Assembly: GCA_000091205.1 (NCBI GenBank)
Contig: AP006493.2
DNA from: Cyanidioschyzon merolae
Lineage: Eukaryota
Length of the DNA: 64,000 nt
Direction: 5' to 3' (one strand)
Part shown: in pieces, positions 11,581 to 64,000 of the stretch
How the letters are laid out: every line of letters begins with the position of its first letter
Numbering within the stretch: position 1 is the stretch's first letter
Translations under genes and position numbers: made by a program
Notes under the pieces: generated by a model
Databases searched by the model: none
The model's input: only the letters and a program-made list of their open reading frames with translations
What the model was told of the DNA's origin: nothing

Positions 11581-11589
11581 CTAATATTT

Positions 11590-12030
11590 GAGCTAGGGTG
11601 TAAACTTTAGAAGGTCGAGATGGAGAAAAGCCAGCAAAGCGCTCCAGCAATAGAAAAGCACGGAGGACTGACAGAGCAGCAAATTGCGCAGAGGGCGCGA
11701 GTTCTAATAATACATAAAATAGTCAGTTCCACCAGAGGCGACAAACGCATGAAGTTCGTGAACCGATTCTACAACTCCACCATCAATTTCAGACAGTGTA
11801 TGGCGTTGAAGACGAGGCCCGAGGAGAAGAGGCGGTCTAACTTTGTAGGGCAGTGTCTCAGACTCGAAGTGCGTCCGGACAAACTGAAACTGGTTGTATG
11901 CGGAAGGCCAAAAAAAGACTGGGAGGCCTGTGCACCTGGGTATCAATGTACCCTATATGGTCGTGGGTTATTTTTCGTTCCATTAATCACATTTTACATA
12001 CCTCAGGCTGTACATACTCCGATCTAATCT
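11590..12030 (+). mobile_element. C-terminal fragment of the TnpB/Fanzor-like family (degenerate RuvC-III 'VNRFYNSTINFRQC')
   Basis: The peptide 'DKRMKFVNRFYNSTINFRQCMALKTRPEEKRRSNFVGQCLRLE' aligns to the copy-A C-terminus 'DKKRMEFVNRDFNAAINIRRCAVLGNRPPE'. It also aligns to the 39-kb tail 'LKTRPEELTRSNFMGQNLRL'. A terminal-repeat-like sequence, 'aaagactgggaggcctgtgcacc', follows it. Confidence 0.5.
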
Positions 12031-23544: not shown

Positions 23545-24976
23545 CGCACTTGCGCAACGCCAGAGTCAAATTAAAAAAGAACAGGAAACTACGCGCTTTG
23601 TCCAAGCTATCCGCTTTTCTCCCCAACTCACATTCAGATCTACACCCTCAGCGTTCGATGCGCAGTTCTAAGTGCTCACGGACTCATAAGCAGTTCCAGA
23701 ACTCCTGATCGGATTTGGAAGCCTGGTTCCTGCGACCCGTTACCACCGGAATCAATACGATTCGTGACTATGTTGGACACGGGCTCGCCATATCTACGAT
23801 GCTGCGGATCAATTTGTTCACACAAGATTCCACTCTGCCCCTTTTCTTACCTGGAGCACGCTCAAATCATGAGTGCTTCAAAATACAGATACTTTTGTTT
23901 CGGGGCAACTCGTGAGCGCACCAATACGCGCTGCTGGACTCGCGAGGAGCACGAACTCGACGATGTCTCTCGCTGACTTGCGCAAAAGCTCATTCCGCAA
24001 GTTTACTGGACTTGTCACGAACAATAATCGATCAGACACGAATGACCAGCTGTCTTATTTTTTGTGTGGTCAACGACGAATACGATCTCGGAACCACCAG
24101 CACCAGCACCACCAGCACCAGCACCAGCACCACCAGCAGCATACCTCTCAGGGAATATGCTCCCAAAGGCTCCCGTCTATACCGTTTCTATCGTAACGAG
24201 TCTTCAGTTCAGTCTTCGATCATCACAGTGATGGATTCCATTGTAGCGTACTTCTCGGCTCTGTATGAAGTGAGCGTACGCGGATCCAGACTTCTCGACC
24301 GATTCTCTAGCCCAGATTTTCCTGACGGTATATGATTCCTCATGGACAACATCGCCATCTCTAAACCTACAACAAATGCAGCAGCGCGCGCCCGCGCGTG
24401 CAGCGGACCGACTAGTCGCCTCGGATCGCGACCCAGAAGAGGCTCGCAAACGTAGCGTACAACACCAGGTGCGGAATCAGAGAATGGCAGACGCGGAAGC
24501 CCCCGTTACCCCGTAAGGGCTCGTACCAAGTCATAAAGCAAGCGTTTGTCGCGCCACAGAGCGGCCTTCGGATACGGAGGCGTGGTGGACCTTCGGGCAT
24601 ACCTGACCATATCCACTTTTCGCCGCCGCGGAGGCCGCACCCAGACTGTACACCAAAACGAACAGCATGGCAAGCGACGCGTAGATCGCAACGTTTGCCT
24701 GTGCACGAAATGCGTAGACAACAGCCGGCAGCGTCGAAATCGGGCACTTGAACACTGCCATGAACGTCCTTCGGATGCGGACAACAGAGTCGGACGGAAA
24801 GCGGAAGCCGACGTCGTTAAAGTCAGCGATCATAGAGAGGAAACGTAAGCAGTTGACGAAAACGCCCGCAAAGGCTCGCGTTGAGAGCAATTGGAAGGGA
24901 TTCCCACTTGAATATGCTCTCCCGCGTTCCCTGACTGGACTCGTTCTATTCTATTCTGTTCTGACATGGGTGCAAC
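23545..24976 (-). repeat. Right arm of the large inverted repeat, paired with 18897..20330
   Basis: It is the reverse complement of the left arm. Arm-encoded peptides are more than 95% identical. Similarity ends at the sequences revcomp-matching 'ttttttaatttaactctgg' and at '...VLTWVQ'. Confidence 0.9.
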
Positions 24977-28562: not shown

Positions 28563-29540
28563 CGCCTTCGCACGGACACCTTGCCGACGTGTCCGCGCAC
28601 GCATGCAGTCAGTTGCCGCGCACGCATGCGTCCATCGCTGTGCGTTGTTTGTGGCGCAGCATGCAGGGCACATGCCGCATCCGCCGCTAGGCACTGCATC
28701 AGCGCCTGCTGTGGCATTCGCGCTCGTGCTGGGCGGCAATACAGCGAGATCTCTCTGCTGCTTGACAGAGGGTCGACGCAGACAAGGGATCCCCGAGTGC
28801 ACGCTTGATAGCAGCGTGCGGTGAAGCACCCATCGTTCCACGCCCTACCTCCACGTACCATCGTCCATACTTCCCCTCGCGGATCCTGGATACGGTGAAA
28901 TGACGCTGGCGCCCGCAGCATCACCGATGCGATACGATCAGGAGTACGTTGCAAATCAGGCGAGCATCCGCAGGATGATGGATGTATGATGTAAGGTCGA
29001 TGCCTTGAACCGGAATCTCCCAGATCATTCAATGATACCGGTGAACAAGCTAGTGAGTTTCTGGTCCTTCCAGATACGTTACGGCGTAGTGCAACATCCA
29101 GAGCGATGATCCATAGTGCATGTGATGCTAGACCGAGGCAGCGCCCTTGCGGGTGCCGCGCACGCGTCATTTGGTTGACACGGCGCTGGATGCGCCGTCG
29201 CAGCCATGGACGTCCTGCAGAGGTGGAACAGCTTTGGGCTGCGTTGATGAGAGTCAGCTCAAGGCATGGAGATATCTGGCACAAGACCCGGACTAGTCAC
29301 TGGTTTGTGCACTGCCGCGTTTCGGTTCACATTGTGGAGTGCGTATCGCACACGGCCGCTGCCGGGAACCAGTGGCATGCATGAGCAAAACGAGCTAGGT
29401 GCTTTTCGCAAATATCGCAAATGCGCAAATGCCCCGAGGATGAAAGATCTGCTTTTTGATGCTTGTTTGTTATTGCATGGTCAGTAGCAGCCGGCACTGG
29501 TCTGCGAACTGAAGCGAGATCCGCTGATGACTGGCGGTGC

Positions 29541-33202: not shown

Positions 33203-36200
33203 CGGAACATTTAGGTACGTATCCCAGCTGTGATGATATGTACCATGTTTCGTTTCATACATCCATTACAGGAATGGTCTGCCTAACAGCGTAGGGCAAT
33301 TGCAGCATAGCAAGGCTGTATGCGCTGTAGGCAGAAGGAGCTGGCGTCAAGAGGTAGCGATTGCTGTCACGTTTTCTGCAGAAGAGCTATTTCGTCGCTG
33401 TAAAGATGAGAAGCATCATCGTATGCGCTTCGTGCATTCGTATCCGTGTCCGCAGCTCGAGACTGCTCCATTGCAGGTAGCTTGCGGATGCGGGAGAGCA
33501 CCCAAAGAAGGTGTCCAGCTCAGAAGCTCGCGAATTGTCGATTTTGAGACACGCTTCAGCACAGGGCGTGAAACTCGGGACGCAATGTGGCGAAATATCG
33601 AGCAACGAGGAACTCGATGCTGCGTCGAGCTTATATTTGCCGTGCGTACGACATAGGCAACTCGTGGAGATGCTTATATCCGCGGATTCGGGGTAATAAT
33701 GTTTACATCAGAGTCATATCGACATCTCGCGACGCGCACAGTGTCCAGAAACGAGTTGCCAGCGCCAGCTCCGGCACTGCGGTTTGCGCCCGGTGCATTT
33801 CGTGGTTCGAGTCAATGAACCGCGACTCGCATGGCTGGAAATACGCATAATGATTAGTACTTACGTCACATCGAATTCTTTAGCCTCGTCGCGCAATGCA
33901 GTGCTTCCCCATTTCAGTTTAGCAGGCCCATTTCGGAGGCATTCCAGACCGTTCGCGAACCAGTTCGCATAGCAGGCCAAGGCGTACGTGCCTAGAATGG
34001 GCTTCCAGCCACGAAGCCCCTTGCTTGGCAGCAGCGCAGAGCGGCTAACGACTTTGGCTCTGGTGAAGCGCTCTCTCCGAGCCACGCGTTGCTTCGGATG
34101 CTTCTGCCATTGAATACCATCGTGACTAACGCACGAACACAATCTGGAACGGCAGCGGTTGCTTGCTTCCAATAATCGAGCTTGTGTCAGCAAGCCATAA
34201 GGAAGCTCCTGGAAGTGCGGAACGACTTGTAAAGGGAGCTGGTAACCGCTGAAAGCTCGCTGCCCTGGAGAACGTCCAGCTTGACGTTTCAAATCCCGCC
34301 TGCAATCCCTGAGCCAGCGCACCCAGTGAAGGCATTACATGGAAACGTACCGAGAACAACCAAACTGGAGCAGTTTTGTATCCCAGTCGTATGACTACTC
34401 CATGTCACCGCTTATCTTATGGCGCACCCTTGATATATCCAGTAACATCGAAAAATGGAGCAGGAATCTCATTTACCAATCGTCCAGGGAAATCGATCCC
34501 AGTCTTGAGAAAGACAGCACTTGTGCATTGCGAGATCGCTGATCTGCACCATAGCGAATGCCCTGCTCCGAGCAAGAATCAAGTTCTCTCTCTCCTGACA
34601 ACTGCTTTTTTCGCCGTAAGTTTTTACGGGTTTAGCACACCGTTCTCACTGAGTATTCAAGGATTTCCTCGAATCCTCGCTCCACACACAAAGCCGCTGG
34701 AAGCTCCAGAAGCACGAATATTTTCGGCTGTTGATCGAGACGTTGAACTCTGGACGCAGAACATGTTTGCATTCACTGTTGCTGATCGATGCACAAAACA
34801 CCACGCCTTTCACTTTCGATCGCGTCACCATCAGACCTTCGCTCTGCTGACGATAATCTTTTTCGCCAAACCGTCTCCGTTTCACGGACGTCATCTCAAC
34901 CGGTTTCATCATATAACCAGGCTGGAGATACATGAATGTCGCATTGAATCCATCGATGGGAATCGTACACCATTGATGTCTAGACTCGTTGGGTGCCCTC
35001 GTCGAACGAGCTGAAGTGGAGCCCATGCTCGCTGCAGCAAGTCTGCATCCACTGGGTCCCATTAAATGACGTCATTTGTCGGTTACTTCCATTCCGACGC
35101 ATCGAAGGTTATGAGTGCTCGCTTCTTGCCTATGTAGGAACGAGACCGTTGACATCTCTCGCCCAGTGTCATGGCAGCCTATCAGAGATCATCCGCATGA
35201 GCTGTTTGGACGCACACGGACTCTCTGAATGAAGCGTACAACGCATCAGCCTCTGCTCGATGAGATGCTCAGAGCGTCGAGATGGTTCCAGACAACACAG
35301 TTTCGCTTACTGGTACGCTTCCTAGTGCTGATCATGTCCGACACCTAAGGATATCGAACCCTGAAATAATCAGGTCGCGTTGCATAGTGTGTACCGAGCA
35401 TAAGATGTCACGTGAAGTTTTGGTCCAAAATCGAATAGAAATGCAGACAGCTGGTAGATCATTGACCAGAAATTATTGCGACTGGTTGCTTGAAAAGGTG
35501 CGTCAAGGCAAGGGATGCCCGGCGAGAATCTCTCGAGTAGGAAGATATACCGTCCCTCATGGCGTCGTACAGCTCAAAGTTCGAAGATTATCACCCTGAC
35601 GTGTTTTACTACGGAATGCCTGACAACAGCATTGGACTGATGTTTCGGCTCCGTTACTTTTCCCTGGGTGTACTTCATCGTCCGTAAATCGGAACGATTT
35701 TCTCTTCTTTTTCAAGTCGTTTCCTCTCCGTCCCGTTCACCTGGCGGGCTGGCATAAATATGGCTGCTACCCTCTGTATCCGTTTTCCGTCTCGGAGCCG
35801 GAGACAGTGTGTCGAGGGCGCGTTGGAGGCTCATCTCCTCTATGCACGTGTTCACTGTTCCTGAATTATATTTCCGTTACGATCCCTTTTCGAGGATACC
35901 CATGTACCGACGAACACGTTTTCGTTCGCTCCCTCGCATTAGCAAGGAAGCAGCACATCTGTTTTTGGATATTGAACGCAGGAAAAACTTGTACAAGAAC
36001 ATTTTCTCGACTAAGATTGGTGCCACGGACATGAACGACCGTCCATAGGTATGTCAGGGCATCGACAAAAAATTTGGGAAGGAGCGAGACACAAGGAGAC
36101 CCTCTACGACGGAGACGGTGTTGAGCGATCCCGTCTGTTTCATGATTCGTAGGAGCACAGGCAACTGATTCGCCCGCTTCTGCTGAAGTTTTCGGAATGC

Positions 36201-37029
36201 TCGCTTGTCTCTTCTCTACGAACGCTCGTCTGATCTTCGTTGAGTACCCATGTACATGTCTACAATTTCTCCCGAATACAGTCTCATCAACTGAGACGAA
36301 AACTCGTGCCGCTCGTGATAAGCGTTGACGCGTCAATATGAAATCAATATTAATTGTCGTTCAAAGCGCGACGCTCTGTTATTATAGAAACGTTCCACTC
36401 TCCGGATTTATTCGTAGTATGCCCTAGGGCACGTGCGGACCGCAGGGGATGTATGGGGAGACACTCGTGTACATACATAAAAGTCGAGGAGCTCTTTCCC
36501 GGCGCAAGTCTTTTCGTATAAACACTCGAAGAAAGGTGTCTCATGCATCCTGTTACCCTAGATTGACCTATTTTGGACGATGAAGATCGTTTTGTCACCG
36601 GCTATCCGCAACTGCATACGCTCTCTCCGCACTATTTCCATTCGCAATAGAATATCTTCCTTTCGAGGAATCCCTGCAAGAAAATCGTACAAAAAACAAA
36701 ATAGGATGCGCCTGTCCAGGTACACCACATTTCGCTATACAGAGCAGAACGCTAACCTTCGGTAACCGTTTCCTGAAACACGAAAAGGCATCAAGAATGA
36801 TAGCCGTGTTAGCACCTTGTCCCCGCTACTGCCTCACCCGAGGATCGTCAGTTCGGGGGCTGTGGATGATGGCGCGCGCCCCCGATGACAGGCCATGCCT
36901 GATCGCGGGCTCGGGCGGCCTGAACGCCCGTATGTCACGTGACTTAAATTTGATTTTTCCTCCTACAAGTAGTTACGCTCCTTCATCATACCTATACTTG
37001 GCTGTCTCCCACGGCGTGGAAACTGAAGC

Positions 37030-39129: not shown

Positions 39130-39760
39130 GTCTGATTGGTTTGTTTGCGGCCTGTCACCTCAGTTGTGTTCCACCGCAGGAGCGTGTCATCAAAAGCTTG
39201 TTCGCGATTTATTAGAGATGCGTTCGAAGTGCGTTCATTTGAAGAAATGAATAATCCAAGGGATAGGCATGGGTATGCAAGTGGGGATCCTGGAAGTCTG
39301 GTGTCGCCAGTTGCCGGGAAAAACGAAAAAATCCTCTTCTTGCTGAGTATCAAGCGGAGAGGAGCATATGACGAAGAAGAGGACGCAGGGAGGCGATTGG
39401 CGACAGAAGGCGTTTGCCCGACGGAATGATGACGAGACTGCAATGAAAGAGAGGGCGCGAGTTCGAGGAAGCCGTGCAGTGGTGCGTTCAACCAAGGCAA
39501 AGCATGCAAGGAGTTCGTGAACCAAGACTTCAAAGCTGCCTTCATTGTGAGAAATGTGCGATGCTGAAGACGAGACCCGAGGAGCTGACGCGATCGAACT
39601 TTATGGGACAGAATCTCAGGCTCAAAATGTACAAGGAGAACTTGAAGCCGGAGCAGGAACTGCTCAAAAATGGCTGGGGGGCGTCTGTAAATGTGCAAAT
39701 ATATGGACTCTGTGGTTGCGTATCGTTTCATTCCATGGAACGTATTCGCAGATCGTAGCT
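39130..39760 (+). mobile_element. Internally deleted (MITE-like) derivative of the TnpB/Fanzor-like family
   Basis: An NLS-like N-terminal remnant, 'GDPGSLVSPVAGKNEK', is followed by a degenerate RuvC-III segment 'FNQGKACKEFVNQDFKAAFIV' at 39516..39548. The C-terminal tail 'AMLKTRPEELTRSNFMGQNLRLKMYKENLKPEQ' and the terminal motif 'ggggggcgtctgtaaatgtgc' follow. Confidence 0.55.
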
Positions 39761-42700
39761 GCTTCTTTTATTTTGATTGCTTAGGTTTCACGAGTAGCTT
39801 GGGTTTGTGGAACACATGAGTGCCCTTTGCACCCTTATTACTCCAAATGTACAGAGGATCTTCGCATACCTTGGTACACTGCCCTTGGTGTCTCAAGTGC
39901 TCCCTGTAAGATTTACGCAGCTACTGTATTTTGATAGAGTAGGAGTCGAAGTTGGCAGGAATGCACGTTTAGGGTCCACATTCCTCTGTGCACAAGTGCC
40001 CCTACTATCTTCCGTGTCTGTATGTTAAGGTGTCTTTGGTATCAAATGCAAGTGAGAACCGAGGTCACCAAATGTACTACGGCCTGTTGACTGCGCTGTC
40101 GCAAAGGAGCCGATGGATGCTCGCTGGACTCGCCGAACGCAGATAACAAGACACTGTACGTGAGCGGGTAATTGGCACTGGCGGCTTCATGGTCAAGGCG
40201 CGTTTGCTATAGGCAGACGTGGTGTGGTTGCGAAAAGGGGGTCCAGCGTCACCACCAGCACAAGCACCAGCATATCGATAGAAAGAATGTGGGCCACATG
40301 GAGCAGCTTCACTCCGAATGTCACGTTTGTGCCCATGTGTGCTGCATTCTGCCTGTGATGGAGTTCCAATTTGCATCGCTGTACGATGAAAAACATGTCC
40401 TGTGCCTTGATGGAGCTGTCGGCGAACGAGTCCACATGATGCGTCGTCCCGCGAATAAAGGCAATCATGACCAAGCGAAACATTTAAACTTGGTACTTGA
40501 TGCCAGCAGTTCTGCAAGCTGCGCAGAGAAATCGCTTCGAGCGTGGAGTGCAAGTTTTCAGCATCGGTGAGCAAGAAATGCGCTTGCATACTGCTTGTCG
40601 TCATCGCTTCTCGCTGGCGGCAGAACGAGTCTCCTGCATGTCAACCGCGGAGCTTTCAAAGAGAGCGAACATTCCCATGTACAGATTATTTTGAACCGGT
40701 GTCATTGACGTGTAAAATAGTCTCACGATCATTAAATTCAGATCATTTAAAGATAGCGTCCAATCTAGCGACGGGATGAAGCGCATTCCAACCGGTGCAT
40801 CGGGTTTTTGGGGTAGCGTATTCCACTGTACCAGCGGTCCCGTATAGTTAGAAGAGAACCACAAAGACGGCCGGCAGCCTTGTTCACCTGTCGGAGACTG
40901 CGCTGTACGGCACCATGCGGACCTCATGTTTCCCGCTGCTGTCACGTGTCGCGTAATATATAAATATCATGAACAATATCGAGCACCGAAACACCATCAT
41001 CGTCTCCCAATTTTCCTGAACAACTGTTTCCAATGTATAATCAGGCGCTTCCGCTCTTATCGAATACGGTTCATGCTAATCCCGTGCAGTGCTGACAGCG
41101 AGAATACAATTCTCTTAATCGTCGATCAATTTTCTTCCTTGGAATTCTTCAGTGTTTCGGCGCAATGCCAACGCTGACTCATAAAGGATTCCCTGGAAAG
41201 TTCGCTCGAAACAAAGCGGCTGTATGCTACGGGAATGCGAGACTTTTCTGGATGCGTATCAAAAAATTAAAGACTCGGTTCAGAAATCGGTTGCATGCAT
41301 GGAAGCCAGAGGAATCGCACTGTCGGAAGAACCTCACCATCGACTGCGGCACCATCCGACGTTCGGTGAGTTTATCGTGCATTATATCGCGCGTCCGGCT
41401 CTGTCTAACTCTCTTCTACTTGGCCTGTTCAGTCATGCGCCCGAGCTCATCACGCGGTGATGACGTCCTGAGCTCATCGGTTGTGGTCAACGAGAGCCGA
41501 TTCATGCTCTCGAGAAAAGCCCTCGTCGACAGAACAGCAGTGCAGCCCTTGCGCCCACCAGCACGTCCATTCCCATCTGCTACCAGCACCACAAGACGCT
41601 ACGTATCGACCGTCTCTCGTTCTGACTCATGGAACAAGTAGACGAATGAGTCCCTTTGGCATCCTTACAACCCAAGCCGTTGGCAATTCTGGCATGGTTT
41701 CAGGTACTCCTGGGAGGCATCATTCGCTCGAGCCTTTCGACGAGTCATATACGATTTGAATGAAGCATACCAAGCGTCGAAATTTGTTCGATTTGGTGCT
41801 CAGGCATCGAGATGTGTACGAACGCCGTAATTTCACATTTGGGGGGTCTCTCCTGTTGCCCATCATGTCTGGCTCAAGACGGTACCGCCCCGTGCACGAG
41901 GTCAGCAGCTTTATTTGCTTTCCGTTTGAGTCTTTCGCACCAGCCTCTGGATCTAGAGTTGCTTGGGCTGCGGCGGTGGCTTTCAGCAAGCGATCAGCGC
42001 TCACCTGGAAGTCTTTCTCTGCGCCTACCCTGAACAACTGGATATTGGTCTTTTTCCTCGACACAGGCCTAGCGTTCACAAAGTGAACAATGTTTCATAT
42101 GTTGTGCGTCTCTATCGTCCGTGTGGGCTTCTATGCATTTTGCTCCTCGTCGACGAGGAATCATGAACATGTGCCGCTAATGCTCTTCTTGAAATTCTGT
42201 GAATGCGACAAATTTCTCTTAGGGATCACTTGAAGCGCATTGAGGAGGCCAAAGAATACTGTGCAGAAAAATTTTCTCTTGGATAACATATGCCTTGATC
42301 TTACAACTGGAGACCATATTCAATAAGCGCTTGAGGGACTTCGGGCACTCAGATTCGGATAAGGCGTCGGTTTTGCTTTTCTTCTGAACGGCGCTCTGGG
42401 AAAAAGCGAAATGGCGCAGCATGCAATCTGGGTAGGGATCATGGTTCATATAACTTTTGCGTTAAACGTCCGTCGGTCTGAGGCCGAGGGCAGTGCAATG
42501 CGCTTAGACGATCTGAAGCGTCTAGCGCTCTCATTTTGGCACCTCTTTCGAACTCGACGCAATCTCGAGATCTTCCAAAAGGAGTACGTCATTTGTCTCC
42601 GTCGGCACACCCCAGAATTCATTCCATCAGGATGCACCTCCTCGGCATATGAGGTGAGGCTACGAGGGATGCAACGTCCACAGCGTTCGCTTCATGAAGA

Positions 42701-45419
42701 GCTCGACATTGAACCGTTATAATTATGGTGTTCTAGGGTCGTTTGATACATTTTGGCAAGCGCGTTGCAGATCTTGCTATATCCGACGTACGATGGAGAC
42801 GTGCCCAAGTATTCTGGGAAGCAAGTGTCCGCAAGTCGAGGATCCTACGATCAGGCCGTGTTCCATCCAGGATCCCGTGTACAAGTTGTGGTATCGCACG
42901 AAGGTTTCATTGAAGAATTCTCGACAGATGAGGAGAGCTAGCCTTGGTGCGTCAGGAACTCGTATGAATAATTGCTTGAAGGGATACGTTCAGGCAAAGG
43001 AGCATAAGCGGGTCTTCTTCTCGTGAAATGCGAATCATCCCCTATTGCGTTCTGGATCTAATATTTTGCAGGATTCTCCCCCACAATGTGCTCGAGCAGA
43101 TAGGCCTTGGCAGAGTCTCAGACTGATCTTTCCACTCCGATACGTTTTCCCACACCCGTGCTCGTCACCTGTTTCAAGAAGAGCTTTACCTTCTGCTCCA
43201 CATGGTAAGCAGCACAGAAATATACGTTGTACGCGATATAGGTCCAAATCCTCGGGATTCAGACACACTGGGTGGAAAATGAATCTGAAGCTCGCCGTTT
43301 CTATACATGTACGAATCGATTCTTTCTAGAGGACCTTCTGGTCTACTTATCCATCCCGAGCATGCTCATGGACAGAAACGAGATTGCCCGCTCGCCCTCT
43401 CACGCACGAGCGGAGAAGCAACCGAGCGGCTCAGGTATTATGAAGGGAAGGAGCGATTTTTGGAAGAAGATTTTGTGAAGGAACGGTGCCACGGGTGCAA
43501 AGGACAGGTTTACTGATCCGCGAAGATGAACATTTCGCGTTTGACAACCGAGAAGACGACCTCAACTCGATCAAATCGGGGAGCAGAGACTGGTACGAAG
43601 AGCCGCTCAATGCCGAGGTGAATCTGTGCGCCCATTCTCAGCTCCCGATTCAAGGCAAGCAATCTTGTGTAAGGTCAGGACAGAGGGATTCAGAAAGGAG
43701 AGGACACTTCGGGTGTTCGATGAAGGACGAGGTGAAGAACGATACCGTATGTTTGATCGTTTCTAGGTGACTACACAACTGAATCGCCTGTAGCGGTAAC
43801 GTTTTCTTGGAATGCACGCGTGTCATTTCTTTACAAACATATATATGGCCCCCTTGGGTTCTCAAATAGACGTCTACGATTCCTCCCAAGTCGAGCCGAA
43901 CTGAGTGCGATGAGCATCCGTCCCTCTTGCACTATACAATTAGGTTTGAGCACAAATTATACAACGTACTGCTGAGTGCGTGACGGTCTGGGATACAAAG
44001 TGCACTTTTTCGTCGCTCCATCCGTGTCTTTCCGTCACCAGCCATATTACAGGTACAGAGACGTCGTATCCTGCGGCATCTTTCGCATCATTTCTGAGAA
44101 AACGTATGGAGTCGAATGGATTGGCGCGGATACTCTCGTGTTGATAGAGTTTCATAATTTCTGTGGTGGGTTAACTTCGTTTGCGATAAGGACATCGATA
44201 AGGATGGTTCAAATATCTGCTGACCCGAGAGTGACAGACATCTGAAAGTGAGGCGGTTTTTGGGGGGGCCAGCAGTTAGAGCATAAAGCCTTTCTGCGGC
44301 TTTGCTCAAATCTCCAAGATACACTCCATCTCTTGAATACCTAGAACCAAGATGATCAAAAAAGCCGCAATGGTACACGTGTTGCAGAATTCATTGGACT
44401 GAGTTTAACGGAAACCTCTAATTTACAGCCGTGTCGAGATGAGAGCTGGAACAGAGCCGTGTCTCAGACAATTCGGCATCCATCGGATGCAAAGAAACAA
44501 ATGATTGCGTTGCGGGCGCTCCCGACACATCTCTGTTAGATCGATACAAAGCTACTCCAAGCGCAAACGTTGTAAAGTGAACAGTGGATCATTAGAGGCG
44601 GACACATCCTAAGAAAGTCTGTTTCTCAGAGCATTCTCGCTGGATCGAACAGACAATTACATGATTGTACATAGCCCTCTCGGACGCATTGCCATGACCG
44701 GGAGTGCGTCTGCGGCTCTTCCAGAGTACCCGAAGAAGGTGCGCTTTTACTGTAAACGGGGTAGCTTGAGGAGAACGTGCACTGGGCCCAGACTAGCTCT
44801 TCACTTTCGCACTATTGACGGGACAATGTTTCTCTGGCCAACTGGTACCATTCTCTTCTTTTCCATCCACATTCTCTGACAGTGAGCATACGGAATATAG
44901 GTCTCAACCAGTGATCGAGTACGGTTGCTCGTCCCTCTCGCCACTGGTGGGCTCAAGCGGCATTAAACTAGAAGACATGCACCATGAACACTGCAAGTGC
45001 GACCACTATCCAGCTAAACGAATCCAGGGTAGTTTACCAGCAGCGGGGTTCTCGTCGAGGCAGCTTCATGCATCAATGCGGAACCGCGTTTCCGCAACGT
45101 TCGGCGTTGGTGTGCGAAACGACAACACGATTCTCTCCCAAACCTCCGTCAACGTATCGTTGCCATATCGCGGCTCCCTGAGCTTCCGTCTGTGCCTGTG
45201 CGGGCCGGGTGCAAACGGCAAAAGTCTCTGGATGAGCAAGCAGCAGCGCATGGCTCAGGGGTCTTCTTGCCTGAATGGCGCGTTGAGCAGGCAAGTCCCG
45301 TTCGGCAACCGGAGCTGCGGATCACTTTCGCGCTGTGTTTGTGTCTCCGAGTTATCCCAGTAGGAACGAAATCGTTCTGCCCACGCCTCTGCAGTGACAC
45401 GCGAAATCAAGAAAAGGGA

Positions 45420-46409: not shown

Positions 46410-46980
46410 ATCGATTTTTTTTTCAGATTTTCTTTTCAGATGACAAACCGTTTAGATTGACCAAGGATCCCAGAATTCGGAATGGATATTCGCCTTCGGG
46501 AAAGCGTCTACTATGAAGCACCTACCTTCATGTGTCATTACTTATACTTCCTCTCGGATATGCTGGTCGTTTCGTATATTCTATCGTGTACCAAGTGCCT
46601 GCCGTGAAGACACGCCGTAACGCGCTTATACCACTGAAGCAGATCCTGCACGGAGACAGAACGGCTTTGGCATACCACTGAGGGCGTCGGCTCGAGGCGT
46701 GATTCATCCGATACGGGGTCGGAGCACATAATCATTCTGGGAGCCTGCGACAGCGCGAAGCGATATACTAGGAGTCCACTGCGACCAGGGCGACGCTCAG
46801 ACGCAGCGTACGCACTCCTCGTTCCAGAATGAATTGCGTTGCGAACGAGTTGCACAGGTCTCGCCACAGCACCTGCCACTGGAGGAAGCATGAAGCACTA
46901 GCTAGCCCCAGACACTCGTCCGGCTCGCGGGACCTTCCGCCTCGAAAGTAAACTTTCGAACATACGGAAACTTTCCCCAT
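46410..46980 (-). repeat. Dispersed repeat 'X' of about 0.6 kb, in minus orientation. Other copies are at 57470..58060 and partly at 63260..63670.
   Basis: It is about 80% identical over roughly 570 nt to 57.47-58.06 kb. It starts at 'ttcgaggcggaaggtcccgcga' and ends in an A-rich stretch. The paired pseudo-ORFs 46538..46891(-) and 57713..57931(+) share '...PTPSVVCQSRSVSVQDLLQWYKR'. Confidence 0.8.
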
Positions 46981-47144
46981 TTCAACGCTTACTATCAAGG
47001 TCATGCGAAACTGTTATCGAGTTGCTAGTTAGCCGTTAGTTTCTGCTCTTTCAGCAATCTGTCGGGACTCACTATGATTCTGGGAGCCTACATGGCGATT
47101 TATGCGTTGCGATACGCTACTGAAACTGTAACAATGCAATTACG

Positions 47145-47800
47145 CTTCATCCACACTGCCGTGTACAGCAGAAGATCGAAACTAAGGTGCAATGTAGTCT
47201 ACGTATCGAAGATAAATTTCGTGTAGGATATATGCTGTACTGAAAAGTGGAACGAGGACGACATTCCTTCTTCAGGTCACTCAGAACACAGTACTCAGAT
47301 TGTTGAGTGATACTAAGAAAAACAAGTGGATGTTCTCCGTATCGAAAACCGAGATTCTTAAAGCGCGTTTGCGGGCAACAGTACAGAACGACTCATTGAT
47401 CACATTACGGCAAGCTAAAGCGACGATCGCAGCAATCGCGGGCGTCCCTGTCTCTCAAAAGCTTGTTCGTGTGGTCCTGGAAACACCAGGATCCAGTCCC
47501 GAAAAAGAGTACTAGTTCACGCACGGCCAGCTTCCATCGAAATTGCAACGACAGCGTTCCTAGAACGCTCCTATCGGTATGTAGCACAGGGACGTCGGTC
47601 TGTTTTTTTAGTTCATGAGACTTGCCTCTGGCGAGACAGTCCTATCGAAAAGGGGAATTCGCAGAGCAGGGATCCCGTTATGCTTACGATCGAGCTCTAG
47701 GAGAACGAGGATACCGTCTGTGTTAGCCGTAGTGGACTGATTTCACAGCCGCAGTTTCTATCGTAGAGAAGGCTCATACAACAGAAGTATCCACTTCATC
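47145..47800 (+). mobile_element. Decayed HTH module (Tc1/mariner-like transposase remnant). This is the second copy of the module at 10745..11580.
   Basis: The peptide 'KATIAAIAGVPVSQKLVRVVLETPG' and 5' nucleotide similarity match the 10.7-11.6 kb copy. It lies between repeat X (46.4-47.0 kb) and the Fanzor-like mini-element (48.1 kb). Confidence 0.45.
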
Positions 47801-48134
47801 GGATCATTCCAGTCTTTTTCCTAACTTCTTGCAACTTGGAGCTAGTGGACAACGCAGTATTTCATCTTTCCCCTTGTGTTCTAGCTTTTGCCAATGGTAT
47901 GGTGGAGTAGTGCTGCTTTTCATTTCGCGATACTGTCTCTGATTCATCCCCACCGAAGGACTGGTTTCTTCGATGAAAGGTAATGACGTCTCCAGTGTGT
48001 GAATCACAGAAGAATTCAGCACGCGGTGACACATCGGTGCACATTGCGTCTTCTTGCGTATGTCCATCTGCCTCAGGGGAGGTCCCTACCTAGGGGCATA
48101 AAGAAGTGCGTTCATGTTCAAAAAAATGAAAATT

Positions 48135-48480
48135 CCAAAGGCAAGTTATGAACATGAAAGTCGAGGATCCTGGAGGACCGGTGTCGCCGGGTTCGAAGAA
48201 AACGAAAAACTACTCTTCACGCCGACCATCGAGCGAAGGGAGGCAAGTAGCACAGACGAGAGAAGATAGACGGGAAAACATATTTACCCTACTGGGCGGT
48301 GACAAGACTTTAGTGGCACAGAGTGCACGAGTTCTTGCAATCTTCGCGGTGGTTTATTCAACCAAGGCAATGCGCACAAAGAGTGCGTGGACCGAGACTT
48401 CAACGCTGCCATCTATATCAGACGATATGCAGTGCTGAGGACGACATGCGCGGAGCTTATTGGATCCAGCCCCAGCTGAG
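48135..48480 (+). mobile_element. Internally deleted (MITE-like) derivative of the TnpB/Fanzor-like family that retains an intact RuvC-III motif
   Basis: An NLS-like region, 'KVEDPGGPVSPGSKKTKNYSSRR', is followed after a frameshift by 'FNQGNAHKECVDRDFNAAIYIRRYAVL' at 48391..48420. Confidence 0.6.
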
Positions 48481-48947
48481 CTGAGTTTCGCGGGCGCATG
48501 CCTGACCCCCCAGTTTTTATTGAACATGGCGACGTGACGGGTCGTATCCGTGGAAAGAAACGTCTATAGCGCATCCGGCCGTGCCAAGGAAAGCTTCTAG
48601 GTGTGCTACGAATTGCAGCACACGCTCTGTCGGCTTTCGAGAACTGAGAAATCGCTGGAGCAGCGACGCATCGCGCTCGAGTCGACGGCTGTGCATTTCG
48701 GATAGTCGGCAGAGCTCTAGACCGTATACATCGAAAAATTGTCCTGCTTGATTCCATTGCGCCTAGAGTATGATCTTCTCGTATCCGAGGCTCACCTCTA
48801 AGGACTATGAGAATCTCTCAGGCATGGAGTGATCATTTTCCCTGGTAGAAATGCGAATCTGAAGGATCCGACTTCGCCGTTCAGGGAGAACACAGGCAGG
48901 CCCACACCAGGACGCTGCATCGACGACGCCTGCCAGGGGCTGTAACG

Positions 48948-54849: not shown

Positions 54850-57175
54850 GGAATGTTTGCAGCGGTATCGCGAGCTTTCACATGCCGACACCGAACACTT
54901 TCCAAAAGTCGAACGATGCCGACCGTGTACAGCAGTGGCGGACGGTGCGCCCTAGACGACGTCTCCATCAGACGTGTAGACGCCTCCCCGTCTTTTTGGA
55001 CCGGCCACCCACTACTGTCTCCAACTTTTTCTCATATTGTTTGACCTTGAGAGGTTGTCCAAAAAAGTTCCTTCTTGTTCACTCTGGAGGTCTGTTCCCC
55101 AGCACCGCACATCTCCGGATATTGATAGCGGCATTAAAATCTCGATTCACAAACTCCATCCGTTTCTTGTCATTACTAGTTGTACTTACTAGTGCAAGTA
55201 GCCCTCGCACTTTTGCCATCCTTTGCATTTGCTTTTCCGTCTGCGGTCCGTACTTTGCTATTTCCTCAGGACTCCTCTGGCACTTTTCCATCTCAACTCT
55301 CTGAAGTATACTCCCCAGCTCATGGAGTGTATACGATGTTCGAAACTCATATACAGGTATCGTAATGAAACGCCGTGCACACTCGTTGTACGTTCTCGTC
55401 GTTGGAGCTCGAGTAGTCCCTTTTTGGGTCTTCCATAGCCCTGCCCCATACGCTACTACGAGACTCTGATTCTCGTCCTTTTTGAAGGCACTCAACTGAT
55501 TGAAAATGTCGGCAAACGCCCGCTGCCTCCCACCATATAGATTCATACGCAAACGAGACCACCGGGGCTTGGTATATTCCTCCCACAGTGCATCCCAATG
55601 AGCAACACGAACTTCCATGAATTTCCGAAAAGCTTCAAAGTCCGCTCTTTGGCTCGACACCTCGCTCAAAGCTTCCAGGTGATCCTTCATCCCTCCATTC
55701 CATGTCTCGATTCTCGATTGTATCTCGATCTCGAGCACCTCAAAAGACGCTTGTCTTTCTGGCTTTAGTTGCCGTCTGTGCCATCTTACCCACGCTTCGA
55801 TGCTGCGATGGTTATGATATTCGTATTCCCAGCGTCCGCGCCAACCATAAAGTTGTTAGCCTCCACCTCCTGCGTCGCAGGACCCGCCTTTCTCTCATCT
55901 TCATGGCTCACCAAGGGCGGGACTCGACGATCTTTCTTCAATAGCCGTTAGTGTACACCCAAGGCTACACCATCGGTTTCGATCATCCCAGTGGACAACT
56001 TTGCTTGCTCGCTCTCAGACGTTTGAAATTGAAGATGTTCTTCCAGTACGTCTGCCGGTATTCGCCGGCGAAGTCCTCCCTACTAGCATCGAACTGGGGA
56101 CTGATCTCCTTCATGATGCCGTGAAGGATTCTGGAGTCGGTACTCACAAAATGTGACTTGATGTTGCACATTGGAACCGCGTTGAGGTGCTTTCTCATTA
56201 GGAAAGCTTTCCGTCTCTCCCACTCTTCATTTTTTCCTCACTCTGCTTCATCTCTGCCTTGCGTTCGAGCTCTGGTCCAGAAACACGAAATAGCGCAGGA
56301 CGAGGCGATAGTATTTTTCTTTGTCTTTTTTCAACTCTGATATCTGTCTGCTGGATTCGCCAGCCCCAAGACTGCACCGTGCTCATGTATAACCGAACGG
56401 ATGAGGGAATTCTCATTTGTGCTCCTGCTTGACGGCTTCTTATCGACGAATTCGACTTCATCTTCATGCTGGCGATCTTTCGCTTTTCCATTGATAATCG
56501 CCCATATTCCTTTGCGAGAGATGCCCGGGTACAGCGCAAACACGGCACGTATTATGAGACGTTCGAGTTTCACGATTACGTGATTCTTCAGGTTCGTGAT
56601 GTACTTCGTCGCCCCTTATACGTAAACATTCGAATCACCTCTGTATGGAGTACTGTTGAAGCTGTGGAAGGGACATTTTTTGTGGAGGTCATGCACTCGC
56701 TCCTTCCTCATCGATGCTTTTCTTGTGTCAGCCATCAGGTGACGAATAAAGCTCTTATCGAAAAACTCGTCCGGAATCTCGACCGTTTCCATGTGCATCA
56801 CGTCGCGATACATCTCGCTCGCCAAATGCATCAGTCCTGACGACGCCTTGACGATACTCTTGGAGTACCAGTCGACACGGTTTCTGATAGCTTCTTGCTA
56901 CTTGAACGGATCCATGATATGTACAAGAAGACAGGCTTTCACCACCATCTCGTTGCACAGTCGTCTTTCTTGCCGCCTTCGACCTAGGGCCTTCCCCTTT
57001 CGGTCCTTCTTCTCTCTTTTTTCTTCTGGATTCCGCATTGTCTTTTGCTTTTTTTTTTCTGGCAGCCGGCGACCCTGGACCTCCAGGATCGTCAACTCGC
57101 TTTTTCATAGCTTTTTTTTTCATCTTTTTTGTGAAAAAGAACGCTCTTTGAACCCTCCTGTTATATGCCACGACA
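54850..57175 (-). pseudogene. Copy A: the longest copy of the TnpB/Fanzor-like (OMEGA RuvC nuclease) element. Its coding region is decayed into several frames.
   Basis: The best fragment, 55079..55738(-), carries the RuvC-II-adjacent block '...ITIPVYEFRTSYTLHELGS...' and the RuvC-III block 'RMEFVNRDFNAAINIRRC'. The lysine-rich N-terminal region 'KKMKKKAMKKRVDDPGGPGSPAARKKKAKD' lies at 56755..57171(-). The middle segments at 56331..56573(-) and 55983..56198(-) match copy B at the peptide level. The 3' terminus at 54960-54990 carries the hairpin AGACG-cctccc-CGTCT. Confidence 0.65.
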
Positions 57176-57469
57176 AAACGCTCGAATATTTTTAGTCGAG
57201 GGTTGAAACGGCATCGGACTGGAAGCTATGATTTGTTACGACTTCCACACAAATACAGCTTGCCTGTTAGAACAGCAAGAAAACGTGTCGTCACGGTCGC
57301 GTTTCTCTTCAAAGGCGACATATGCGTCGTGTCTCGTAAGTGCCATACTTGGAGATGCACGTATCGAGCGCGCCATACAGGAAAAAGGACAGTGACTTAC
57401 GATTTACAAGAAACGATGTAAAATTTTTTCCCGCTCTACGATAAGCGTTTAAGGGGAAACAGATCGCCG

Positions 57470-58060
57470 TATTATCGGAAGCTTATGTTCGAGGCGGAAG
57501 GTCCCGCGACCCGGTCGAGTCTACCGGGCTAAAGCTCGGTATGCCTCTAAAGTGGCCGCTGCCGCTGCTGCTGCAAGACCTGCGTAGCTCGTTCGCAACG
57601 CATTTTATCCTGAGACTATGCACAGGATGCTGCGTTGGGCCTCGCCCTGGTCGCAGTGGAACCCTAGTACAGCACTTCGCGCTGGCGCAGGTAGTAGGTC
57701 TTTCTGCGCACTTTGCATGTTCCCAGAATGACAAATAGCCCTGATTCCGTTTCAAGTGAATCATTCCTCGAGCGGACGCCCTTAGTGGTATGGCAAAGCC
57801 GTTCTGTCTCTGTACAGCACCTGCTTGAGCGGTATAAGCGCTACAGCGGGTGCTCACAACAGGCTCGGCGCTCGATAGAACATACGAAACGACCAATATA
57901 TCAGAGAGGTAGTATGGATAATGGGACTTGAGGACAGGTGCACTATGATCGAGATATCCCCGGAAGCCATCGTGCGTTCCGAATTCTGGGATGCATGGTC
58001 AATGCAAACGTTCTTTCATCAAAAAGAAAAAAACGCTCCGGAGGCGGACTCGTCATCGAG
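57470..58060 (+). repeat. Repeat 'X', plus orientation, immediately upstream of the copy-A N-terminus
   Basis: See 46410..46980. The order and opposite orientation relative to the Fanzor-like ORF match the 46-48 kb locus. Confidence 0.8.
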
Positions 58061-60599: not shown

Positions 60600-62850
60600 G
60601 ACCGAAACGTCTCGTAAGACCACCGCACCCGACGACAACAAACATCTTTCGAAACAAAAACGTTGCTGCCGGCAGTAGACAGTACTGGCGAGAAACTCGC
60701 CCTAGACAAGAAGTCGCCAACTGACGTGCAGACGCCTCCCCGTCTTTTCCGACCGGCCACCTACTGTGGGTACCATTTGTTCTTATATAGTTCCAGTTTA
60801 AGAGGTTGTCCAACAATGGACTCTCGTGTCACCGCTGGGAGTCTTTTGTCTATTCCCGCACATCTCCGTAGATTGATTGCAGCGTTAAAGACTCGGTTCG
60901 CGAACTCCATACGTTTCTTGCCGATGGTAGACGTACTTACTAATGCAAGTAGTCCACGAGCTTCTTCCCTCCTTTCCATTTCCTCTCCCGTCAGCTGTCC
61001 CTTACTTTTTTATATCATGACGACTCCGCGGGCACTTTTCAATCTCCATCTTCTGAAGAGTACATCCCAACTCGTGGTGTGTATACGATGTTCGGAACTC
61101 ACCCACAGGTACCGTAGCGAGACCCAGTGCGCACTCCTTGTCCATTCCTGCCGTTGGAGCTGGTGTAGTCCCTTTTTTCGGAGCCCAGCCCCCTACATCA
61201 TATGTAACAACGAGCCTCTGACTTGATCGTCTTTCAAGCCGTTCAACCCATTGAAAAAGCTCGCGAATGCGTGATGCTTACCACGGCACAGATTCATACG
61301 CAAACGTGCCCAGCGGTGCTTTGTATACTCGCCCTACAGCGCCACGGAATGAGCAACCCCAACTTCCAAAAATTTCAGAAAAGCTTGAATGTCCGCTCAT
61401 CGGCTCGTCACCACGCTCAAAGCCTCCAGGTGATCCTTTATTCCTACATTCCACGTAACGATCTTCTTCCTTGCATTCGTTATACCGGATTCTCGATAGT
61501 ATCTCTCTCTCTCGAAAACCTCAGCAGAAGCATATGTTTGTGGCGTAAGGTGCAGTCAGTGCAATCTTCCCTTCGCTTGTGAACAGCGATGGTTATGAGA
61601 TTCGTGCTCCAGGGACTAAGGCCGACGCCAAAGTGGTTTTCATGGGGCTTATACGTTCCATAGCCCGTCAACCTGTGTTCGTTCTTCGGCAAGGGCCGTA
61701 AAGAAGACGGGATAGGACGAGCTGCCTTCAACCGCTGATGGTGTACACATATGTGCGCCACATCGAGATCGATTGTTCCAGTGAATAACCTTTTTTTGGC
61801 CGGTTCGGGACACTTGAAATCGAAGATATTCTTCTCGTAGGCGTCCCGATCTTCACCGGAGACCTATTTGTTGATTACATCGAGCTATGGATAGATCTCT
61901 TTCCTGAAGATGCAAAAGGACTATGGGGTCGATATTCACAAAATGTGACTTGAACGCGCATAACCGACCGACATTGAAGCGCATCTGGAGAAGACTTCAA
62001 TGTCGTTTCTCGCACTCGTCTTTTTTTCCACACTCAGCTCCATGCCGACCCTGCGATCGAGGTCTCGGACCGAAAACATGAAGCAGGGCAGGTTGAGAGA
62101 GTAACAACTCTATCCGTCGTTTCTCATATCCGAGAGTTTTCTCTTGGGTTGACATGACCCAAGACCGAACGATGTTTTAGAATAGTCGCGCGAATTACAG
62201 AAGCATCATTCATTATCCTGCGTGATGTCCTCTTGTCGACGAGTCTGATCTCCTGTTCATGCTGGCGATCGTTCTTCATACCGTCGATGATTGCAAGCAT
62301 CCCTTCGCGAAATAGGCCATGGTACAGCACAAAGGCGACGCGTATCATGAAACAATCGAGGTTTGCCATTTTATGGTTCCTCACATTCATAAGGCACCTC
62401 TTTGCCCTGTATTCGTAAATGTCTGCGTCACCCCTGTGTTCAGCACCGAAGACGAGGAATTTGGCGTAATTTTTGAGGAAGGCATGCACTCGCTCACTTA
62501 TCCCCGATGTTTTCCCATTAAAAACAATCAGGTAGTTGATGAAAGTCTTTTGGAAAAATTTTTCCGGAAACATCACTTTCGCGATAAGCGTTACGTCCCG
62601 ATGCAGGTCGCTGTCCAAATGCCAACGTCCTAAAGAGAAGATACAAACATACCTGGCGTACGAACCGACACGGTTTCTGATAGCGTCTCGCAACAATCAG
62701 TCGTACGGATCATTGATATGTTGGAGAAGATAAGATTCCACCACCATCTTGTCGTACAGAAGTCACAATTTCGGCCTTCGATGTAAGGCCCTCCCATGTT
62801 GCTTCTTCTTCTGTTCTTGACCCTCTTCGCTAAGCACTACGTCTCGTTTC
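60600..62850 (-). pseudogene. Copy B: second long copy of the TnpB/Fanzor-like element. It is more decayed than copy A.
   Basis: The ORF 60761..60979(-) reads 'LLALVSTSTIGKKRMEFANRVFNAAINLRRC...GQPLKLELYKNK'. The ORF 62124..62696(-) matches copy A at '...GMLAIIDGMKNDRQHEQE...'. The 3' end at 60721-60745 contains 'gacgtgcagacgcctccccgtctttt'. Confidence 0.6.
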
Positions 62851-63259
62851 TTTCTGACATCCGGCAGCACCGGCCACCCCAAACCCACAACCTCCAAATA
62901 CATAAGTCTAATTTTTGTTTTGGGAGAAAAACTCATTGGACGCTTCTGCTTTGAACGGCGAAAATAAGTTGAATACCCTTACTTAATGATTGAAACGCCA
63001 TAGGAGCCAAAACTATACTTTGCTACGATTCGATCAGAAATACAAGTGGCCCCGATAGAGCAGTCGCTCCAGAAGAGGTCATTACCGCGTTTCTATTGAT
63101 CGGCGAGATGCACGTAGCGTGACGTGACGGCCAGATTTCGCGATGCGTTACCAGGACGCACGATATAGAAAATGCCAAAAAATTGACAATATCCAAAAAC
63201 GGGGTACCAAGTACTAACGCCACCTACTGTAGACGTTAAAAGGAAGAAGTCTTTGCGTA

Positions 63260-63670
63260 TGGTCAAGCAGTGACATATAGGCGGAGGGTCGGCAAGCAGC
63301 GAGACTCTACCAACCGCTAATACCGGTTGACCATACAGTTGCGAGTGAAGTGACACACCCTAGCATCCCATCCGAAAAAGAACAGATTCTGGAACAAGGA
63401 GCGGATATATTGCGTCTAAGCGTGACCTAGATTGCGGTAGACTAATGGTATAGCGCTTTACGCTATCGCAGGCAAAAGGTCTGCAAGAACAGCTTGAAGG
63501 CTCCAAAGAAAATAAATTTCCCTGATCCCATGTTGCATGAACCAAGACCCTTCCAAAGCGCTCAGTGGTAGGCCAGAGCTGATCTGTTTGAAGAGTGCAA
63601 CAGCAACGAAGAAAGAGAGGCTACGGCGGGTGCTCAGAGCAGGTAGACGGCGCAGGAGAGAAAGTCTGAT
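63260..63670 (+). repeat. Partial repeat 'X' upstream of the copy-B N-terminus
   Basis: The sequence 'ggcggagggtcggcaagcagcgagactctacc' matches X 'ggcggaaggtcccgcgacccggtcgagtctacc'. The sequence '...gctacggcgggtgctcagagcaggtagacgg' matches X '...gctacagcgggtgctcacaacaggctcgg'. Confidence 0.5.
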
Positions 63671-64000
63671 ACGATCAGTACAGCCGAGATAAAGTAAATG
63701 CGACGGAAGGGAAAGAAACTGGTCAGCGGGATGGACGATTCTCCGAAACCAGTATCGATCCAGGAATTTCGCCGGTCTATCCAGTGGGCAAGTTCCACCA
63801 GACCAATAAAAGCATAGCGCCGGAGGTAATTCCCTAATGGCTCTAATATGCTAAATGAAAAAAATGACATATGCAGAGGAGCTCAGACGGTACCGCCGAA
63901 AAAAAAATCCCTAACGAGTCCGGAATGGTAGACGTCAAAATCACAGACGCTTTCGCGCTGGGATCATCGCGTTAATGGTGGGACTGGGGGGAATGGGGGG

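Follow-up and report, generated by a model that had tools for sequence, protein, structure and literature searches.

The interval from 46.4 to 48.5 kb of a 64,000-nucleotide stretch of Cyanidioschyzon merolae DNA (contig AP006493.2; the whole stretch is referred to as the window) carries, along its plus strand, a repeat termed X, a helix-turn-helix (HTH) module and a shortened copy of a Fanzor1 gene. With a probability of about three in four, this interval is read here as two dead relics lying side by side, each derived from a different recurrent Fanzor1 composite. A sequence-only reading of the same DNA had proposed that X, the HTH module and Fanzor form one element. This was not borne out, since the triple was found once, X joins the Fanzor core directly in the CMe-1A consensus (see below) and none of the eight other HTH units has X upstream. 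The interval contains the following features.

46428–47051, minus strand: X, a solo repeat of the TE-N2_CMe type (CMe-1A consensus positions 2–636 align with 46439–47051 at 79%)
47052–47115, plus strand: possible degraded left-end remnant of a Fanzor core with a 'CTGGGAG' motif (a weak assignment by direct sequence reading)
47110–48100, plus strand: full-length, decayed IS630/Tc1/mariner-type transposase pseudogene (DDE_3), comprising the HTH module and the rest of the DDE domain
48103–48560, plus strand: mini-Fanzor, an internal-deletion derivative (CMe-1A amino acids 1–44 at 48148–48282 and 660–692 at 48360–48458)

CMe-1A is a Fanzor1 element of C. merolae of ~3 kb with ~150 copies at ~80% to the consensus (Bao & Jurka, 2013, Mobile DNA 4:12; PMC3627910). 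Over its 5' 635 bp it shares 95% identity with TE-N2_CMe, a repeat that also exists separately in ~70 copies; the remainder is a Fanzor core of ~2.5 kb. The class of both is given as unknown, CMe-1A having no terminal inverted repeats (TIRs) and its target-site duplications not being determinable (PMC3627910). The published CMe-1A consensus (3169 bp) was aligned to the window. Positions 2–3165 matched 58020–54900 (copy A, 81%) and positions 37–3166 matched 63767–60646 (copy B, 72.6%), X being included in both. Because of these full-length alignments (81 and 73%, with 79% for X at 46.4 kb), X was identified as TE-N2_CMe and copies A and B as CMe-1A; the composite of X and Fanzor is an already published family. 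Its two copies in the window are as follows.

54900–57372, minus strand: copy A, Fanzor core of CMe-1A, from the left-end boundary at 57372 to the 3' terminal hairpin at ~54900
57373–58030, plus strand: X module (TE-N2 part) of copy A, directly abutting the Fanzor core
60646–63160, minus strand: copy B, Fanzor core of another CMe-1A in a more advanced state of decay (72.6% to the consensus)
63161–63767, plus strand: X module of copy B, degraded and lacking approximately the first 36 nt of the consensus

The Fanzor gene of copy A is a pseudogene with its reading frame spread over three frames, and that of copy B is also broken. The partial X previously noted in copy B is present, with an extent of 63161–63767 instead of 63.26–63.67 kb.

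Similarities were measured by self-BLAST of the whole window, and all of the repeats were far above chance (E 1e-7 to 1e-92), at about the positions at which the sequence-only reading had placed them. X at 46428–47051 matched 58030–57384 in inverted orientation (69% over 659 bp, E 1e-88), the orientation relative to Fanzor being identical for the two, and matched 63696–63229 at 59% (E 8e-20). The HTH module was repeated at 10.7 kb (47146–47875 versus 10749–11488, 67%, E 5e-92), as was the transposase/Fanzor junction (48026–48131 versus 11468–11579, 69%, E 2e-7), which confirmed that an HTH module and a Fanzor fragment are contiguous at 10.7–12.0 kb with a junction matching the 48-kb mini-copy. 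The mini-Fanzor matched a third place (48103–48466 versus 39226–39595, 67%, E 2e-43), and 48104–48208 also matched the 5' end of copy A (57148–57049). Copies A and B corresponded over 3.1 kb (54879–57914 and 60626–63696, 65%). In the window, X followed by Fanzor was found three times in one relative orientation, HTH followed by Fanzor twice and the full X–HTH–Fanzor triple once; the proposed recurrence of order and orientation thus holds for the two pairs and fails for the triple.

Related places were sampled in one scan of metagenome contigs, which gave 80 places (handles such as L004 denote these metagenome loci) with at most 8 kb of flank each, the relatives being encoded in 328 stretches. 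The junction of X with the Fanzor core was identical at 11–13 distinct places with unrelated outer flanks. The deletion of an HTH module from copy A, which had been suggested, was not borne out, as the CMe-1A consensus joins X straight to the core with no transposase trace between them. A single composite element of the Tc1/mariner type with the order X–transposase–Fanzor, from which copies A and B had lost the transposase and the 10.7-kb locus had lost X, would agree with the triple order and consistent orientation at 46.4–48.5 kb and with the documented occurrence of Fanzor1 on Mariner elements. It is nevertheless very improbable. In both the consensus and the 11–13 distinct copies X meets the core at one nucleotide with no transposase remnant, and the eight other distinct HTH–Fanzor or HTH–mini units begin at a separate conserved left end, with X within 700 bp upstream in 0/8. 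The homology to Fanzor sets in ~110 bp before the ATG in HTH–Fanzor versus ~260 bp in CMe-1A, X is a retrotransposon tail (see below) and TIRs were not found. L065 was considered as a second triple and rejected; 5.4 kb with host-looking open reading frames (ORFs), chaperonin- and HSF-like by eye only, separates X from the HTH module there.

We keep to two neighbouring relics. The HTH–mini unit at 47110 begins at its usual left end, and a stub of ~60 bp of the left end of the Fanzor core also follows solo X at L017 and L069. The HTH–mini unit was possibly inserted into or beside a CMe-1A remnant.

X and the 3' end of a LINE

X is the antisense, 5'-truncated 3' end of a non-LTR (non-long-terminal-repeat) retrotransposon (long interspersed nuclear element, LINE), of ~640 bp with an A-run at its outer edge and antisense to Fanzor. 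This assignment was made because of collinear LINE 3' ends, protein matches and an A-run with differing flanks. The reverse complement of TE-N2 was collinear with the 3' ends of five LINE copies (64–66% over 455–489 bp, E 1e-40 to 1e-49), and X matched the LINE at the protein level too, across the ORF2 C-terminus and the 3' untranslated region. The outer end of X is a run of 6–9 A (on the LINE strand), with unrelated flanks beyond it at more than 12 places. At L004 an ORF of 255 amino acids lies upstream of an intact Fanzor gene on the opposite strand. RVT_1 and an FADD box (as in P0102) are carried by some of its 39 close homologues, and the reverse-transcriptase ORF of the same repeat at L043 passed the RVT_1 cut-off (46.9 bits, E 3.4e-12). 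Pfam gave nothing usable for the L004 ORF, the X ORFs and the ORFs of a further repeat, V (see below), and a protein search with the concatenated six-frame X ORFs returned zero matches.

X at 46.4 kb has its retroposon sense on the minus strand, with the short A-run (T's on the plus strand) at the 46.42-kb end, and its orientation towards the downstream Fanzor is the same as in CMe-1A; in copy A the sense strand is plus and the A-run is at the 58.03-kb end. The 46.4-kb X groups with the solo copies at L017, L060 and L069 (82–85%). The proposal that X is the 5'-terminal region of a Tc1/mariner element was not upheld in view of its alignment with LINE 3' ends; the alternative offered with it, a retroposon with an A-rich end, was right in kind, X additionally serving as the standard 5' module of CMe-1A. 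That TE-N2_CMe stems from a LINE is a new point, the repeat being unclassified in the paper that describes it (PMC3627910). Two weaker matches (62–68%) to the outer ~120–180 bp of X, at 28763–28879 (plus strand) and 15201–15382 (minus strand), are probably further LINE-tail fragments.

X is found with no complete Fanzor at 46.4 kb, L017, L065 and L019, and ~70 solo TE-N2_CMe copies have been reported (PMC3627910), as would suit an unrelated repeat resembling a short interspersed nuclear element (SINE) that lies near Fanzor by chance. Against this, the junction is one and the same at the 11–13 distinct places, ~150 composites have been reported (PMC3627910) and several solo copies bear a stub of the Fanzor left end. 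Chance proximity is refuted for the X–Fanzor pair, for which it is scarcely credible, and is a fair description only of the adjacency of X and HTH at 47.05–47.11 kb. Independent distributions of X and Fanzor, which would have pointed to such a repeat, were not what was found, given the identical junction and the published pair.

A search for target-site duplications around CMe-1A copies found no flank words of at least 8 nt in common at the predicted positions, which is weak evidence as the copies are old. TIRs were sought on the CMe-1A consensus and on copy A; the best inverted end match was 10 nt in the consensus, and nothing notable was seen in copy A. The 10-nt match is perfect (GACAAAACGT; consensus positions 5–14 versus ~62–77 nt from the 3' end; window region 58016–58025). 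One arm is the outer end of X, a conserved LINE 3'-end motif (AAACGTTTTGTC on the LINE strand), and the other forms the stem that comes first in the 3' region of Fanzor (GGAGACGTTTTGTCT). A fraction of ~0.02 of shuffles score as well. The match could be due to chance or could be a common recognition motif.

The transposase–Fanzor unit

The consensus pseudo-protein of the transposase was rebuilt from 11 copies, stitched across frames. It matched DDE_3 with 79.1 bits (cut-off 28.6, E 3.9e-22, profile positions 4–136 of 146), which bears out the earlier view of the HTH remnant as a decayed Tc1/mariner-type transposase. HTH_Tnp_Tc3_2 was matched below the cut-off (E 1.7e-4), and with raw frames of single copies this Pfam profile was reached at E 0.015–0.03 only. 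The consensus aligned with the window in three frames (amino acids 6–214 at 47207–47821, 107–241 at 47500–47901 and 242–292 at 47904–48056), and the catalytic motifs DET, LLDN..H and NPIE were all recognisable within 47110–48100 across the shifted frames. Alignment with the Mariner transposase of PUl-1 gave 28% identity, with DE(T/A), LLDN..H and NP(I/V)E in register. Of the limits first given to the HTH module (47145–47800), the start is about right and the end is not; the gene runs to ~48100 and is a whole transposase, not an HTH module alone.

The mini-Fanzor at 48103–48560 retains the 5' leader, the first ~45 codons, the last RuvC motif (VDRDFNAAIYI) and the structured 3' end, and its deletion junction is common to other HTH–mini copies. 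The unit of transposase and mini-Fanzor (~1.45 kb) was found in the eight other distinct copies with this same deletion junction and the same left and right ends, so that the placing of a transposase fused upstream of Fanzor stands as that of a recurrent unit with shared ends. The Fanzor joined to it belongs to a second lineage, distinct from that of CMe-1A. The HTH–Fanzor copies are ~67% identical to each other, all decayed and mostly internal-deletion minis; at L065 the HTH module is followed by a full-length (broken) Fanzor. No intact transposase copy was found, a search of L042 and L065 included. In the eight HTH-unit copies the best inverted matches between left and right ends were short and inconsistent. 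TA is present at or just before the conserved left end in several copies, which is suggestive only, and the right end could not be placed to the nucleotide. The search of the outer edges that the sequence-only reading had advised found no TIRs and no clear TA duplications. A Tc1-type Fanzor composite in the red-alga lineage is a new point. Further remains of this kind in the window are listed below.

10749–11580, plus strand: second DDE_3 transposase pseudogene (amino acids 1–229 in three frames), lacking a segment of ~170 bp that holds NPIE
11589–11983, plus strand: Fanzor C-terminal fragment and 3' end (amino acids 612–721 at 54%), contiguous with this transposase pseudogene
39155–39736, plus strand: mini-Fanzor with neither transposase nor X (consensus 795–1074 and 2809–3083)

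There is no X upstream of the relic at 10749–11983, and a host AAA-ATPase gene ends at 10181. Immediately 3' of this relic, 12036–13044 is a 61%-identical relative of a 1.43-kb inverted repeat pair (18898–20325 and 23554–24975, 98.7% identical) that flanks ~3.2 kb. A second, much more divergent pair of transposase and Fanzor was seen on the minus strand at 34559–36400 and 41085–43927, the two loci being ~58–62% identical. Their Fanzor-like stretches (34721–35368 and 41170–41832, minus strand) have 25–30% protein identity to the CMe-1A Fanzor, and DDE_3-like remnants lie upstream of them at 36241–36342 (ORF 35866–36336, 'VFVSVDETVFGR') and 43534–43617.

The Fanzor core and its boundaries

In the consensus CMe-1A protein the RuvC motifs GADPGNTN, PVDEFRTSYT and NRDFNAAINI were identified by eye, and the same blocks are present in the Fanzor1 protein of PUl-1. 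They make up the D...E...RD constellation of Fanzor/TnpB-type RuvC nucleases, with [TS][TS] ahead of the zinc-finger region. An hhalign comparison with the latter gave E 4.4e-6 and a probability of 87%, over the RuvC-II block only. Pfam yielded for Fanzor only Cas12f1-like_TNB below the cut-off (E 0.13–0.51), a precomputed match to DUF8286 was weak, and a profile search of the PDB gave nothing at E ≤ 1. An AlphaFold model calculated from a shallow alignment was unusable (predicted local distance difference test score 31). With the reading-frame composite of copy A as a query, 66 homologues were obtained, every one metagenomic and including an intact protein of 752 amino acids (P0001); every Fanzor copy in the window is a pseudogene.

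Full-length copies have a sharp common 3' end with a long hairpin. The hairpin was predicted in 5/5 copies, four of which had z about −3 (single-sequence folds); its sequence comes in two versions, each able to pair. RNAalifold on 39 aligned 3' ends gave no consensus structure, because the alignment does not bring the two versions of the hairpin into register, and Rfam gave no match over the whole window. Just past the terminal hairpin, many copies have a short (GTT/GGT/GAT)n-like run before the flanks diverge (L023, ~3130–3145; L046, ~2985–3005; L025, ~10655–10670).

The 5' boundary of full-length copies is likewise sharp, at consensus position ~647 (CGCGCTCAGTGAGCGC...). A palindrome, GCGCTCAGTGAGCGC, lies 1–2 nt from it, usually after A|T, and folds no better than shuffles. 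Besides X, the other 5' partners of the core (U, V, LINE tails and the transposase) all switch at this position. In 36 distinct copies the 5' neighbours were distributed as follows.

X (antisense LINE 3' fragment): 11/36 copies
LINE 3' tail in sense orientation, with LINE pieces of 0.3 to >1.7 kb: 9/36 copies
Longer antisense LINE fragment (1.2 kb): 1/36 copies
V, a repeat (≥1.6 kb) that runs on into LINE coding sequence at other places and probably represents the 5' region of the LINE in antisense: 5/36 copies
U, a module of ~457 bp: 7/36 copies
Other: 3/36 copies

A LINE end thus falls exactly at the 5' boundary of the Fanzor core in 26/36 distinct copies, in both orientations and with several truncation points. 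In the sense-tail class the junction reads ...GAAAAAAAGAAT|CGCGC. Because tail and Fanzor 5' region diverge incongruently in this class, its members look like independent events. The X class fits a shared founder followed by co-movement, since its junction is identical and its divergences are star-like, X copies differing by ~33% and Fanzor copies by ~20%. A Mantel test of X versus Fanzor distances (r = 0.89, p = 0.008) was driven by one outlier and was not used as proof of co-movement.

The adjacency of X and core could instead reflect a site preference, with LINEs integrating at the left boundary of the core (at transposase or Fanzor breaks) or the core inserting at LINE ends. The frequency of LINE ends at the boundary, in at least four configurations (X of 0.65 kb, the 1.2-kb fragment, V and sense tails), speaks for this, as do the incongruent divergences of the sense-tail class and the single LINE fragment at L006 that touches two Fanzor left ends. 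A site preference is nevertheless rather unlikely. In the X class specifically, the junction is identical throughout, X and its Fanzor partner are of equal age, the X copies form a star-like set, and X ends on the outside at the natural LINE terminus in every case. Taken together, these features agree with a single founding event after which the composite spread. The coincidence of LINE ends with the boundary is a new point and the one lead worth genome-wide follow-up.

At L006 (1–4557) a LINE fragment of 1.3 kb lies between two divergent Fanzor copies, its 3' tail at one left boundary and its truncated 5' end at the other. U was found at L009 (7215–7671) and at six other distinct loci, reaches up to ~610 bp and, in the sample, was confined to the position immediately upstream of the Fanzor core. 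Close to the junction it carries the perfect palindrome GGACACGTGTCC, and an A/T run is lacking at its outer end; U may be the native 5' part of the element.

The window has a GC content of 54% and its genes are poor in introns. Each of the flanking genes (AAA-ATPase, proteasome ATPase, ubiquitin fusion and RNase H2) is a long ORF without interruption, and a BRAP2-like gene of 718 amino acids recurs unchanged on JGI (Joint Genome Institute) metagenome contigs, beside a plastid-lumen gene of the CYP38 type. These features fit a red alga of the Cyanidiales (Cyanidioschyzon) type.

Mobility and comparison with known systems

By family knowledge, the Fanzor protein would be an RNA-guided nuclease, and the conserved 3' stem-loops would likely serve both as the omega-RNA and as the right end, with the guide taken from the 3' end. 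The HTH–Fanzor lineage presumably spread by cut-and-paste for as long as it had an intact transposase. Deletion within the Fanzor gene gave rise to the ~1.45-kb unit, which was copied many times, the minis presumably being moved in trans. For CMe-1A, copying by the LINE reverse-transcription machinery of a transcript ending in X is tentatively favoured, at somewhat below even odds, because there is no transposase and the outer terminus is exactly the LINE 3' terminus. Copying at the DNA level, in which the fixed 3' hairpin would be the anchor and the 5' side would vary, after the manner of Chlamydomonas CRe-1/2/3 or Mucor MCi-2, is the main alternative, though a doubtful one. A tie of the transposase-less Fanzor to the LINE, by retro-mobilization through the antisense tail and/or by a boundary that is a hot spot of breaks capturing LINE cDNA, appears quite unlikely as it stands.

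Several points weigh against the two neighbouring relics and the LINE-mediated copying of CMe-1A. X lies within ~60–100 bp of the HTH unit in the 'right' orientation, which has a modest probability for a chance neighbour, and nested insertion or recombination may have joined the two. The related places were sampled via Fanzor and not via X. Solo X copies stop at a discrete point instead of at random truncation points, and the right end is equally sharp in copies with no X, for which the antisense-transcript model alone does not account. Target-site duplications, expected for copying by reverse transcription, were not found at CMe-1A copies, which are 20–35% diverged.

As first proposed, the arrangement matters little, the X–Fanzor composite having been published in 2013 and Fanzor1 being documented on Mariner/Tc1 elements and near LINEs. 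Of more use are two by-products, namely the classification of TE-N2_CMe as the 3' end of a LINE and the single, sharp switch point on the 5' side of the Fanzor core, at which LINE ends accumulate. For the spread of transposase-less Fanzor1 elements, a small, gene-dense red-alga genome with ~150 copies and a matching LINE offers a tractable system.

Fanzor1c has been associated with Mariner/Tc1 and LINE elements (Jiang et al., 2023; PMC10530073), and PUl-1 of Pythium ultimum is a Mariner/Tc1 element that carries Fanzor1 (PMC3627910). The HTH–Fanzor unit resembles PUl-1 in having the transposase followed by Fanzor on one strand, in the DDE_3 type of the former (at the 28% identity given above) and in the common RuvC-II block. 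It differs from PUl-1, which has TIRs of 24–33 bp and TA duplications, in having no TIRs or clear TA duplications and in that no intact transposase was found. The minis recall the Fanzor 'ghost' loci (Saito et al., 2023; PMC10432273) and deletion derivatives like miniature inverted-repeat transposable elements, as they keep the 5' leader and the 3' RNA-like region and have lost nearly the whole nuclease gene. They have no bracketing inverted repeats, and any guide RNA from them is putative.

X shares with LINE-dependent retroposons (SINE-like or tail-sharing) the last ~590 bp of the LINE and a short A-run, and is a discrete dispersed repeat; unlike in these, the tail in CMe-1A is antisense to the cargo gene, and neither duplications nor a random series of 5' truncations was shown. 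Chlamydomonas CRe-1/2/3 (Helitron2, 'one-ended') and Mucor MCi-2 are Fanzor1 families with a fixed 3' end and a variable 5' side (PMC3627910). As in these, the 3' end here is constant with a hairpin, there are alternative 5' classes of several copies each, 5'-shortened and internally deleted copies are frequent and the core starts with a small putative hairpin, usually after A|T. No convincing asymmetric terminal inverted repeat by the 3' hairpin was found and the CTRR end is absent; no Rep/helicase gene turned up, no search having been aimed at one. Unlike in those families, the 5' partners here are mostly LINE pieces.

The closest likeness is to CMe-1A and TE-N2_CMe themselves, from which copies A and B (81 and 73%) and X at 46.4 kb (79%) show no structural difference. 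The paper describing them (PMC3627910) leaves both elements unclassified, whereas the present analysis derives TE-N2 from the 3' end of a LINE and finds further 5' partners joined to the Fanzor core.

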